In this document: positions 57,408-59,119 of the stretch, piece by piece
Layout: each line of letters begins with the position of its first letter
Numbering within the stretch: the stretch's first letter is position 1
Assembly (NCBI GenBank): GCA_964016885.1
Contig: OZ024741.1
Span: 206,956,001-207,020,000, forward strand
From: Eledone cirrhosa
Taxonomy: Eukaryota
Length of the DNA: 64,000 nt
Direction: 5' to 3'
Notes under the pieces: model-generated
Database searches by the model: none
What the model saw: only the letters and a program-made list of their open reading frames with translations
What the model was told of the DNA's origin: nothing
Program-made: the position numbers and the translations under genes

Positions 57408-58241
57408 ATACATGAATGTATGTATAGTATATTTGGCAATACACCGTGTGTTTAATTAAAAACATTTTGAAGACCTTGCTCTATCATTTTTAAAGTAGTG
57501 ACTATGTCACTTCTTTATTCGGCAAAAGAAGAGAGAGAAGCTGACAGATTCTGTTTCAGGCTGTTGGCGATCCTCCCTCTCAGCATCGTACTCCCTGCCT
57601 TTGCCAAAAATTATAGAGGCTGGATTCTTGTAGAATTCCGGTAATAATCAGGAACTGATTATACAGAGCGATTGCCGGTCCAGCAAAAATTAAAAATTAG
57701 GATTGGTGCTCTAAAATACCGATGTATACATGAATGTATGTATAGTATATTTGGCAATATACCGTATGTTTAATTAAAATCATTTTGAAGACCTTGCGCT
57801 ATCATTTTTAAGGTAGTGACTATGTCACTTACTTCTTTATTCGGCAAAAGAAGGGAGAGAAGCTGACAGATTCTATTTCACGGTGTTGGCGATCCTCAGA
57901 GCATTATACATCGCTATTTCAGAGCACCAATCCTAATTTATAATTTTTGCTGGACTGGCAATCTCTTTGTATCATCAGTTCCTGATTATTACTGGAATTC
58001 TATAAGAATCCAGCCTCTATAATTTTCTGCAAAGGCTCTGAGGATCGCCAACAGCGTGAAACAAAATCTGTCAGCTTCTCTCCCTTCTTTTTCCGAATAA
58101 AGAAGTAACTGACATAGACACTACTTTAAAAATGATAGTGCAAGGTCTTCAAAATGTTTTTAATTAAACATACGGTATATTGCCAAATATATTATACATA
58201 CATTCATGTATACATCGCAATTTCAGAGCACCAATCCTAAT
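57408..58241. repeat. ~320-bp hammerhead repeat homologous to the 317-bp array (about 1.5 minus copies plus one plus copy; another fragment at ~58880-59095)
   Basis: Shared blocks GCTATTTCAGAGC, CCTGATTATT..CTATAAGAAT and CTACTTTAAAA..GGTCTTCAAAATG. Confidence 0.85.
58033..58077 (+). ncRNA. Type I hammerhead with canonical C3-G8 core
   Basis: AGGCT CTGAGGA T CGC CAACA GCG T GAAA CAAAATCTG TC AGCTT; minus copy at ~57861-57902. Confidence 0.72.
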
Positions 58242-58244
58242 ACA

Positions 58245-58545
58245 TACATATATACAAACATATATACAAACATATATACAAACATATATAGAAACACACA
58301 CAGAAACACACACACACACACACACACACACACACACACACACACACACACACACATATATATATATATATATATATATATATATATATATATATATATA
58401 TATATATATATATATATATATATATATATATATATATATATATATAGAGAGAGAGAGAGAGAGAGAGAGAGAGAGAGAGAGAGGGAGAGAGAGAGAGAGA
58501 GAGAATGATAGAGATAGCGAGAGAGAAAGAGAGAGAGGGACAGTG
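58245..58545. repeat. Compound (CA)n(TA)n(GA)n microsatellite
   Basis: Seen directly. Confidence 0.98.
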
Positions 58546-58599
58546 AGAGAATAAAAGGCGAAGTTCGTTCTAGATGCTAAAAAGTCCATTATTACCAAA

Positions 58600-58680
58600 G
58601 CTGTGATACATATTTCAATGACGATCGTGGCTACATGATTGTTCAATCATGTAACCGATCACGCGGTCTCATCAGACAGC
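58600..58680 (-). ncRNA. Type I hammerhead, same family as 54960-55033
   Basis: GCTGT CTGATGA GACCGCGTGATCG GTTACATGATT GAAC AATCATGTAGC CACGATCGTCATT GAAA TATGTA TC ACAGC. Confidence 0.7.
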
Positions 58681-59119
58681 ATCATTATGTAATAAGTTTT
58701 CGTTTCTGAAGCAATTCAATCTTAAGACAAGGGAACGGGCCTGGTTTTTACGGACGGTTTAAATTTGTTCCCATTTCTCGTTTGTAAAAGTTTCCTTCTA
58801 TTCTGACAGGAAAAAAACACACACATGCATAGATTTTAGTCGAATTAGCTTACAAGGAAAAACAGCAGTTAAAGACACCGTACTGGAATTCTATAAGAAT
58901 CCAGCTTCTATAATTTTCGGTGGCGCTAATGAACGCCAACCAGCTTGAAACAGACTGTCAGCTCCTCTCCCTTCTTTTGCCGAAAAGAAGTAAGTGACAA
59001 AGTCACTACTTTAAAACTGATAGCGTATGGTCTTCTAAATATTTTTAATTCAACATACGGTATATTGCCAAATATACTATACATACATTCATTCATATAT
59101 ATATATATATATATATATA

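Follow-up and report, generated by a model that had tools for sequence, protein, structure and literature searches.

Non-LTR retrozymes are tandem repeats of 170-400 nt that are expressed as circles (Cervera and de la Pena 2020, PMC7229834). In the parts of that paper drawn on here, the metazoan representatives (Rtz_331 and Rtz_353 of axolotl, and the 350-390-bp repeats of mussel) are short tandem units of low GC content that do not code for protein, carry a single type I hammerhead, occur in thousands of copies and several subfamilies, and co-exist with Penelope-like elements (PLEs). Axolotl HHR_Amex2 has U·U at the base of helix II, and an axolotl family with this pair cleaves 22% in one hour (same parts of PMC7229834). 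Hammerheads are also carried by the pLTRs of PLEs themselves (Cervera and De la Pena 2014, PMC4209133). As described in the consulted sections of that source, these have type I topology, a self-complementary helix III suited to dimers, a U3-A8 variant in Schistosoma and many sequence families per genome; they are mostly minimal, helix II being long and helix III nearly absent, and have an RT-endonuclease ORF attached. For the autonomous Poseidon PLE of Anolis, the available portion of Frangieh et al. 2024 (PMC11167929) reports AT-rich targets, tandems and an optional tail of 30-40 nt, the tail being the in vitro outcome of two adjacent internal RT start sites. The hammerhead was dispensable for insertion in that system, and uncut RNA was the main template. 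Retrozymes of Xenopus, derived from PLE pLTRs, have been proposed as non-autonomous PLE partners in a study that argues for a PLE origin of retrozymes (Li, Clavereau and Pollet, bioRxiv 10.64898/2026.07.22.740005). There, the mean amphibian unit is ~316 bp, 24 of the 57 families are homologous to known TEs (PLEs being 21 of the 22), tandem growth is discussed as satellite-like expansion, and only one of nine tested elements cleaved. The giant squid genome paper (PMC6962438) mentions, in the part consulted, just 235 Rfam hammerhead matches. Two questions are left open in this literature, to the extent that it was drawn on: which enzyme mobilises animal retrozymes, and what role hammerheads play in PLE-type elements.

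A repeat family in the 3.0-Gb, (TA)n-rich genome of Eledone cirrhosa links both questions, combining the two-start tail and inverted arms of PLEs with a catalytic core selected in nine lineages. It was studied from the window, that is, the whole stretch of 64,000 nt at 206956001-207020000 of its contig, where an earlier note had pointed to ~320-bp repeats lying near an array of 317-bp units. The units are tandem, dispersed, non-coding, low in GC, hammerhead-bearing and within 170-400 nt, which at the sequence level are the attributes of a non-LTR retrozyme, and the family is probably a retrozyme whose RNA circles, made by the ribozyme, are copied by a PLE enzyme. Neither as an RNA nor as an element does it form a new class; its class of element and its U3-A8 core have been published, and so has a U·U pair closing helix II at the base. 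Nor is it an autonomous PLE, as its units and arrays are without an ORF encoding RT and GIY-YIG.

The sequence-level features listed above for metazoan retrozymes recur in Eledone, including U·U at the base of helix II and the presence of PLEs. Circular RNA is known there, whereas the Eledone family is known from genomic sequence. In addition, six of the nine Eledone subfamilies have U3-A8, stem I carries a further, distal helix of 13 bp, and the full PLE signature of inverted arms, two 3' ends and (TA)n was not found described in the consulted parts of PMC7229834. Topology, dimer-compatible helix III, the U3-A8 variant and the multiplicity of sequence families are shared with the PLE pLTR hammerheads, from which the Eledone motif differs by a helix II of 3-4 bp, a helix III of 3-5 bp, a G10.1-C11.1 pair in only four of nine subfamilies and the lack of an ORF. 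Like Poseidon, the family shows two adjacent, putative internal starts, an optional tail, AT-rich targets and tandems; its tail is shorter (~26 nt), and its core is under selection across lineages, whereas the Poseidon hammerhead is dispensable in vitro. Unlike many Xenopus families, the Eledone units have no homologous pLTR that was found in the PLE regions sampled, and their multimers were apparently formed at insertion rather than by satellite-like growth. In the main texts searched, neither the Eledone repeat family nor a combined tail and inverted-arm signature in any retrozyme was found described, and no literature on C3U together with G8A was found; the family may already be listed in supplements, Repbase or Dfam.

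The ~320-bp repeats do align with the 317-bp unit as had been claimed, with 68-71% identity over ~300-350 nt (E down to 1e-42) for the B unit of the 57408-58241 insertion and 68-78% alignment identity to the 317-bp array for the repeats of 57408-59100 (Table 1). The string quoted in the earlier note, with a C3-G8 core and GTC, is present and matches the U3-A8 motif of the 317-bp array column for column, so the two motifs are positionally homologous; cleavage is predicted 3' of C58072. Only one of the four copies in 57408-59100 reads so, however, and the fourth copy belongs to a third subfamily, C.

Table 1. Elements of the repeat family and of PLEs in the window (positions of the 64,000-nt stretch).
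Feature	Position	Strand	Remarks
Autonomous-type PLE with RT-linker-GIY-YIG ORF	46861-51161	-	Longest open piece 47664-49226
Inverted arm of subfamily A insertion	55287-55590	-	Core 55472; 3' end in (TA)n
Young subfamily A array, 4.1 x 317 bp	55587-56883	+	3' end in (TA)n
U3-A8 hammerhead cores of A array	55754, 56071, 56388, 56705	+	
Terminal-repeat fragment of second PLE family	56935-57070		Between A array and B insertion
Composite subfamily B insertion	57408-58241	inverted + direct	Two arms joined head-to-head
Inverted arm of subfamily B insertion	57408-57905	-	~1.5 units
Subfamily B unit	57408-57718	-	Long stem I intact; catalytic core lost to insertion near 57572-57582
Subfamily B unit, 5'-truncated at stem I	57691-57903	-	Core 57893-57899 intact
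Direct arm of subfamily B insertion	57905-58241	+	1 unit + tail
Subfamily B unit	57913-58241	+	14-15-nt deletion in 5' strand of stem I
Type I hammerhead motif quoted in earlier note	58033-58077	+	Sequence motif, predicted ribozyme; core CTGAGGA 58038-58044 (C3-G8), GAAA 58058-58061, GTC 58070-58072
Separate 5'-truncated subfamily C copy	58881-59100	+	Core 58926-58932, G5 changed to A
ORF of second PLE family	62195-63805	+	

The B unit that bears the quoted motif terminates at the tail site, with an AT-rich microsatellite next to it. Its 5-bp stem I (AGGCT/AGCTT) exists because of the 14-15-nt deletion in that copy; in the family form, stem I consists of GCT/AGC, an internal loop, a 6-bp helix and the 13-bp distal helix. 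The deletion recurs in six of 29 other top-scoring loci (a query-biased sample), in differing sequence backgrounds, and at one locus (L009) it is present in just one of the two arms. The same copy has its stem II closed by U·U and an A·C mismatch in stem III, and it folds no better than shuffles (z=+0.13), as compared with z=-2.5 and z=-3.9 for intact copies of B and C and z=-7.1 for a unit of the A array. The quoted copy is thus a decayed one, and most copies of the interval are broken. Pairing of the stems does hold across the nine subfamilies described below, among which the CAACA loop, said to be kept, varies. In the 5'-truncated inverted B unit, one stem II pair is broken, position 15.2 is altered and the distal stem is missing, and the C copy has an 18-nt deletion and (TA)n at its end. 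At the gathering threshold, Rfam gave no hits in the 64-kb window. Below it, Hammerhead_HH9 (RF02275; gathering score 52) matches A copies with 31 bits (E 7.5e-5) and a C copy with 25 bits, and no match to this model was obtained for the B copies of the window; with such sub-threshold scores the family is not assignable to RF02275.

A 19-mer common to the subfamilies has 6,351 exact matches in the genome, a lower bound on copy number, against none for a reversed-pattern control, and the matches are spread over many contigs. Nine subfamilies were delimited (A, A4, A3, G, B, C, H, J and A2), each with a majority sequence built from 15-29 copies. The first six share 71-94% pairwise identity, and the first 30 matches to the 19-mer in genome order comprise several subfamilies, three of them additional. 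Because only the best 40 candidates of each genome DNA search were scored, the samples lean to the query; further subfamilies probably exist beyond those reached with DNA queries and one pattern. Median divergence from the subfamily majority is 0.3% for A and A4, 1.6% for A3 and 2.9-5.2% for the others, all of these being underestimates because top-ranked copies were sampled. Units are about 307-321 nt long (316-321 nt with linker), with a GC content of ~36% and no internal ORF of 150 aa or more, and at 17 A-type loci whole insertions are made of units only, with no LTR architecture seen. The catalytic core is intact in 14 of 29 sampled copies of B, 14 of 29 of C, 18 of 18 of A and 15 of 15 of A4. 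Genomic copies decay about neutrally: 50 of 2320 core sites are changed, as are 1480 of 55221 sites in the rest (p=0.13), and purifying selection on the copies themselves is unsupported.

Selection on ribozyme structure, as the earlier note had proposed, nevertheless holds genome-wide, and the evidence supports its acting on source (mobilised) RNA lineages rather than on genomic copies. All nine majority sequences conform to the type I hammerhead core (CUGANGA...GAAA...UH with a Watson-Crick 3-8 pair), pair 3-8 being C-G in three and U-A in six. The bases U4, G5, A6, A9, G12, A13, A14, A15.1, U16.1 and C17 are identical in every one of them, in a domain where 68 of 100 columns vary (hypergeometric p=4e-6); elsewhere in the unit, 61 of 216 do. 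Covariation backs three helices around this core, with helix I open. In the nine subfamilies, 227 of 234 helix cells are paired, against 178±7 (maximum 199; 0 of 5000 sets reach 227) under a tree-aware null in which the substitutions of each branch were re-dealt among the 52 paired columns, and same-branch double changes number 16-18.5 against 4.5±1.8 (maximum 13); because core motifs served as anchors for the helices and the choice of the distal helix came from the A and B folds, some selection bias remains in these figures. The two units on which covariation had originally been argued could not alone have reached significance. In a test on 15 real copies, with a structure drawn from those same sequences and a shuffle that ignores relatedness, 92.7% of the 480 cells were paired, double changes occurred in 15 of the 32 pairs, and slid controls gave 45-58%. 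Given a plain MAFFT alignment of 11 real copies, RNAalifold recovered stems I, II and III and the three-way junction unaided; its fold of the whole unit is multi-branched, with double changes in 19 of 78 pairs, three of them outside the ribozyme domain.

Of the seven cells that do not pair, three are A·A, two are U·U and one is C·A. The remaining one, A·C, is an artefact that comes from pooling two sub-lineages of B, as 40 real B copies have at this cell 17 G-C, 13 A-U, three G·U and three A·C, with four other or gapped. Within B, a double change in stem II is made up of two transitions of the CpG type. G·U occurs 18 times in the helices and A·C twice, which points to the RNA strand, and the sense strand folds at -45.8 kcal/mol as against -26.0 for the antisense. 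That nine lineages keep the catalytic core under selection is supported by these comparisons; cleavage itself is predicted.

Pair 10.1-11.1 is G-C in A, A4, A3 and G, A-U in C and part of B, U·U in most B, A·A in H and J, and C·A in A2, with the non-standard forms counted in five of nine subfamilies or sub-lineages. A stem I internal loop and an A/C-rich loop II are present and differ among subfamilies, with no invariant motif seen. All nine have a self-complementary helix III segment (self-duplex -6.9 to -20.1 kcal/mol), which fits the dimer-dependent or protein-assisted cleavage published for related motifs. In each subfamily, 0-8.5 kcal/mol separate the hammerhead fold from the predicted minimum below it, the gap being largest for B and C and inflated in B because its majority sequence mixes sub-lineages; rod folds lacking the active form are predicted for most subfamilies. 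The sub-threshold Rfam scores, the non-standard 10.1-11.1 pairs and these energy gaps speak against an active ribozyme.

Flank-only and domain-only trees agree in their topology, (A,A4),(A3,(G,(B,(C,(J,(H,A2)))))). Separation of the U3-A8 lineages from the C3-G8 lineages by one split is rejected (AU p=2.7e-5), and on these unrooted trees the core pair has therefore switched between the two at least twice independently. The domain tree is 3.5-fold longer than that of the flanks (1.66 versus 0.48), which implies stronger sequence constraint on the flanks; these may serve as promoter or protein-binding sites. A-to-I editing as the source of fast stem change was rejected, private A>G changes numbering 86 and T>C 87.

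Insertion anatomy was read from 17 A-type loci picked for long arrays (16 and that of the window), which yielded 31 arms, the best one on each strand being taken. Almost every arm runs into (TA)n. Their 3' ends lie at the unit end in 15 cases, at +24/25 nt in 11, and elsewhere or unreadable in five, the two fixed ends being ~26 nt apart. Each end is found on one arm at nine of 14 two-armed loci and the same end twice at none, and the other eight subfamilies have the same two 3' ends. The 5' ends are scattered, with none of 31 within 15 nt of the predicted cleavage site and 23 in the 112 nt immediately 3' of the long stem (p=1e-5), as if reverse transcriptase stalled before that stem. Arms contain up to 13 units and pass through the predicted cleavage site. 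Some variants are present in every unit of both arms (L283, L290, L292 and the window), as expected from one template, and others in subsets of units only (L281, L285, L287 and the window), which indicates that later DNA-level duplication also happened. The 5' truncation, partial tandems, inverted arm, optional tail and microsatellite targets make up a PLE-type signature and match the hallmarks of PLE insertions given in the consulted part of PMC8557442. At L197:4413-7347 (G000:C4:358176412-358179346), a 1.2-kb inverted duplication of 99.8% identity is centred in an A array and reaches, by way of (TA)n on either side, an older PLE fragment; it is possibly one insertion event on a chimeric template.

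The PLE of the window represents a candidate class of driver for the repeat units. Its ORF is interrupted by stops in this copy; the GIY-YIG match (E=6e-4) is weaker than the Pfam cut-off, the linker cysteine motif is seen, and a PDB search with the PLE protein gave no hits. Its pLTR has its own hammerhead, with the core near 47167-47161 and a very long helix II insertion, and there is an inverted 3' arm at 50195-51161. The family has at least 150 copies in the genome, the best 150 matches being at 95-100% protein identity, and several copies have open frames of 780+ aa. Of its arms before (TA)n, 20 and 15 of 37 end at two fixed sites, and its tail of ~140 nt is longer than that of the repeat units. 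The window PLE and the repeat unit show no sequence homology, and no unit is present at 30 loci of this PLE family. At 29 loci of another PLE family the pLTR differs from the unit, with an unrelated unit insertion nearby in two. More generally, the PLE regions sampled out of 60,256 first-look candidates contained no pLTR homologous to the unit; the sole likeness is a 15/16-nt terminal match in one of the nine subfamilies, equalled in three of 300 shuffles, uncorrected for nine tests. A unit is joined head-to-head to a PLE fragment at four loci, involving at least three different PLE families, and no PLE ORF runs straight into a unit on the same strand among the loci scanned.

Several other PLE hammerheads were seen. 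The second-family fragment at 56935-57070 has a minimal hammerhead with core 57010-57016 and GAAA changed to GAAT. L200 (G000:C28:96158000-96163000) holds the whole C-terminal region of a PLE, at 57% to the PLE of the window, and its pLTR hammerhead also has U·U at 10.1-11.1. In a further PLE family (L299, L308, L323 and related loci), the pLTR has a hammerhead-like core with the majority sequence CCGATGA (U4 changed to C) and a long helix II insertion.

How such units might spread can be pictured as follows. Tandem transcripts of ~317-nt units would self-cleave after GUC to give monomers, which a host ligase would close into RNA circles. These would be reverse-transcribed in trans into (TA)n microsatellites by a Penelope-like RT-endonuclease of the Neptune/Nematis type. 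Priming at either of two internal, AU/AC-rich, single-stranded sites ~26 nt apart, one per target strand, would produce two head-to-head arms with the tail on one. Source RNAs would found new subfamilies only if their ribozyme works, and this would explain compensatory change between subfamilies together with neutral decay within them. We infer transcription, cleavage, ligation, the circular template and the PLE enzyme acting in trans. A ribozyme-cut linear monomer cannot be the template, because copying from either start site would reach its 5' end after ~140-165 nt, and its exclusion leaves a circle or an uncut multimer. The full proposition, of an animal retrozyme inserted by PLE two-site internal priming on an RNA circle, without a pLTR shared with its driver, with cleavage needed in vivo, and with a ribozyme domain that drifts ~3.5x faster than the remainder of the RNA and a core pair that swaps repeatedly, has in our judgement an even chance of being right.

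With the same element and PLE enzyme, an uncut linear multimer transcribed from a genomic array would account equally well for arms that pass through the cleavage site, in which case the ribozyme would be kept for release from host transcripts, RNA stability or regulation. Hammerhead mutants left PLE insertion in vitro unaffected (available portion of PMC11167929), inactive rod folds are predicted for most subfamilies, and some arrays have subset-shared variants, all of which agree with such a template. We nevertheless consider it rather unlikely, as arms of up to 13 units with private array-wide variants in both are most simply derived from one small circle, strict core retention over nine lineages implies that cutting matters, and known retrozymes accumulate as circles (consulted parts of PMC7229834). 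The units could also be 5'-truncated pLTRs of an unsampled autonomous PLE, given that PLE insertions are mostly truncated and leave solo hammerhead pLTRs (PMC4209133, in the sections consulted), that Xenopus retrozymes resemble pLTRs (bioRxiv 10.64898/2026.07.22.740005) and that unit and PLE fragment are joined at four loci. This is improbable. The long arms consist of the 317-nt unit alone, up to 13 times and with no ORF; no same-strand run from ORF to unit was found in the loci scanned; and the four head-to-head cases span at least three PLE families, both kinds of element targeting (TA)n.

Another conceivable origin would be an ordinary minisatellite grown by unequal crossing-over, with paired changes arising from DNA correction of inverted repeats and the hammerhead likeness arising by chance. 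Template switching at quasi-palindromes can mimic compensatory change, the Rfam scores are below threshold, and the stem II double change in B is composed of two CpG-type transitions. Such an origin would leave unexplained the ten invariant unpaired core bases, the twice-switched lone 3-8 pair, the 18:2 excess of G·U over A·C, the difference in folding energy between sense and antisense strands, the dispersal over many contigs and the two fixed 3' ends, and we find it scarcely credible. For the preferred reading, copying of circles by a PLE enzyme, the genome offers a good test system, with the youngest subfamilies ~0.3% diverged (among top-ranked copies) and a young PLE with long open ORFs. 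The family also constitutes a natural series of hammerhead variants for kinetics, with U3-A8 or C3-G8, with G-C, A-U, U·U, A·A or C·A at 10.1-11.1, and with a palindromic helix III.

Judged by motif scanning, the genome is very rich in hammerhead motifs. A generic scan of ~450 kb (L001-L120 and the window) returned more than ten unrelated motif families, many of them with U·U at the base of helix II. One dispersed repeat family with tandem and inverted pieces, at 60580 (+) and 10246 (-) of the window and also at L039, has a type I hammerhead with C3-G8, U·U at the base of helix II, a palindromic helix III and a GUA triplet, and weakly matches (25-27 bits) the covariance model of the Eledone repeat family. 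A U3-A8 hammerhead-like motif lies at 2247 (-), in an inverted/tandem repeat at ~2000-2850, and three copies of a hammerhead-like motif, CTGAAGA, with a 6-7-bp helix II lie at 37704 (+), 46571 (+) and 42534 (-). An inverted repeat family at 59117-60314 has hammerhead half-cores in reversed order (GAAAC before CTGACGA), to which no helix arrangement could be fitted. Weak covariance-model matches (28 bits) at 17727-17804 and 11382-11472 are probably plain hairpins. The window also contains a 208-bp tandem repeat at 12376-12929 (2.7 copies, 77% matches), part of which resembles by eye a tRNA B box and is SINE-like, Helitron-like pieces of PIF1 helicase at 6730-9614, and, at 20909-33740 and 44852-46285, several broken RVT_1 reverse transcriptase fragments that probably belong to LINEs.
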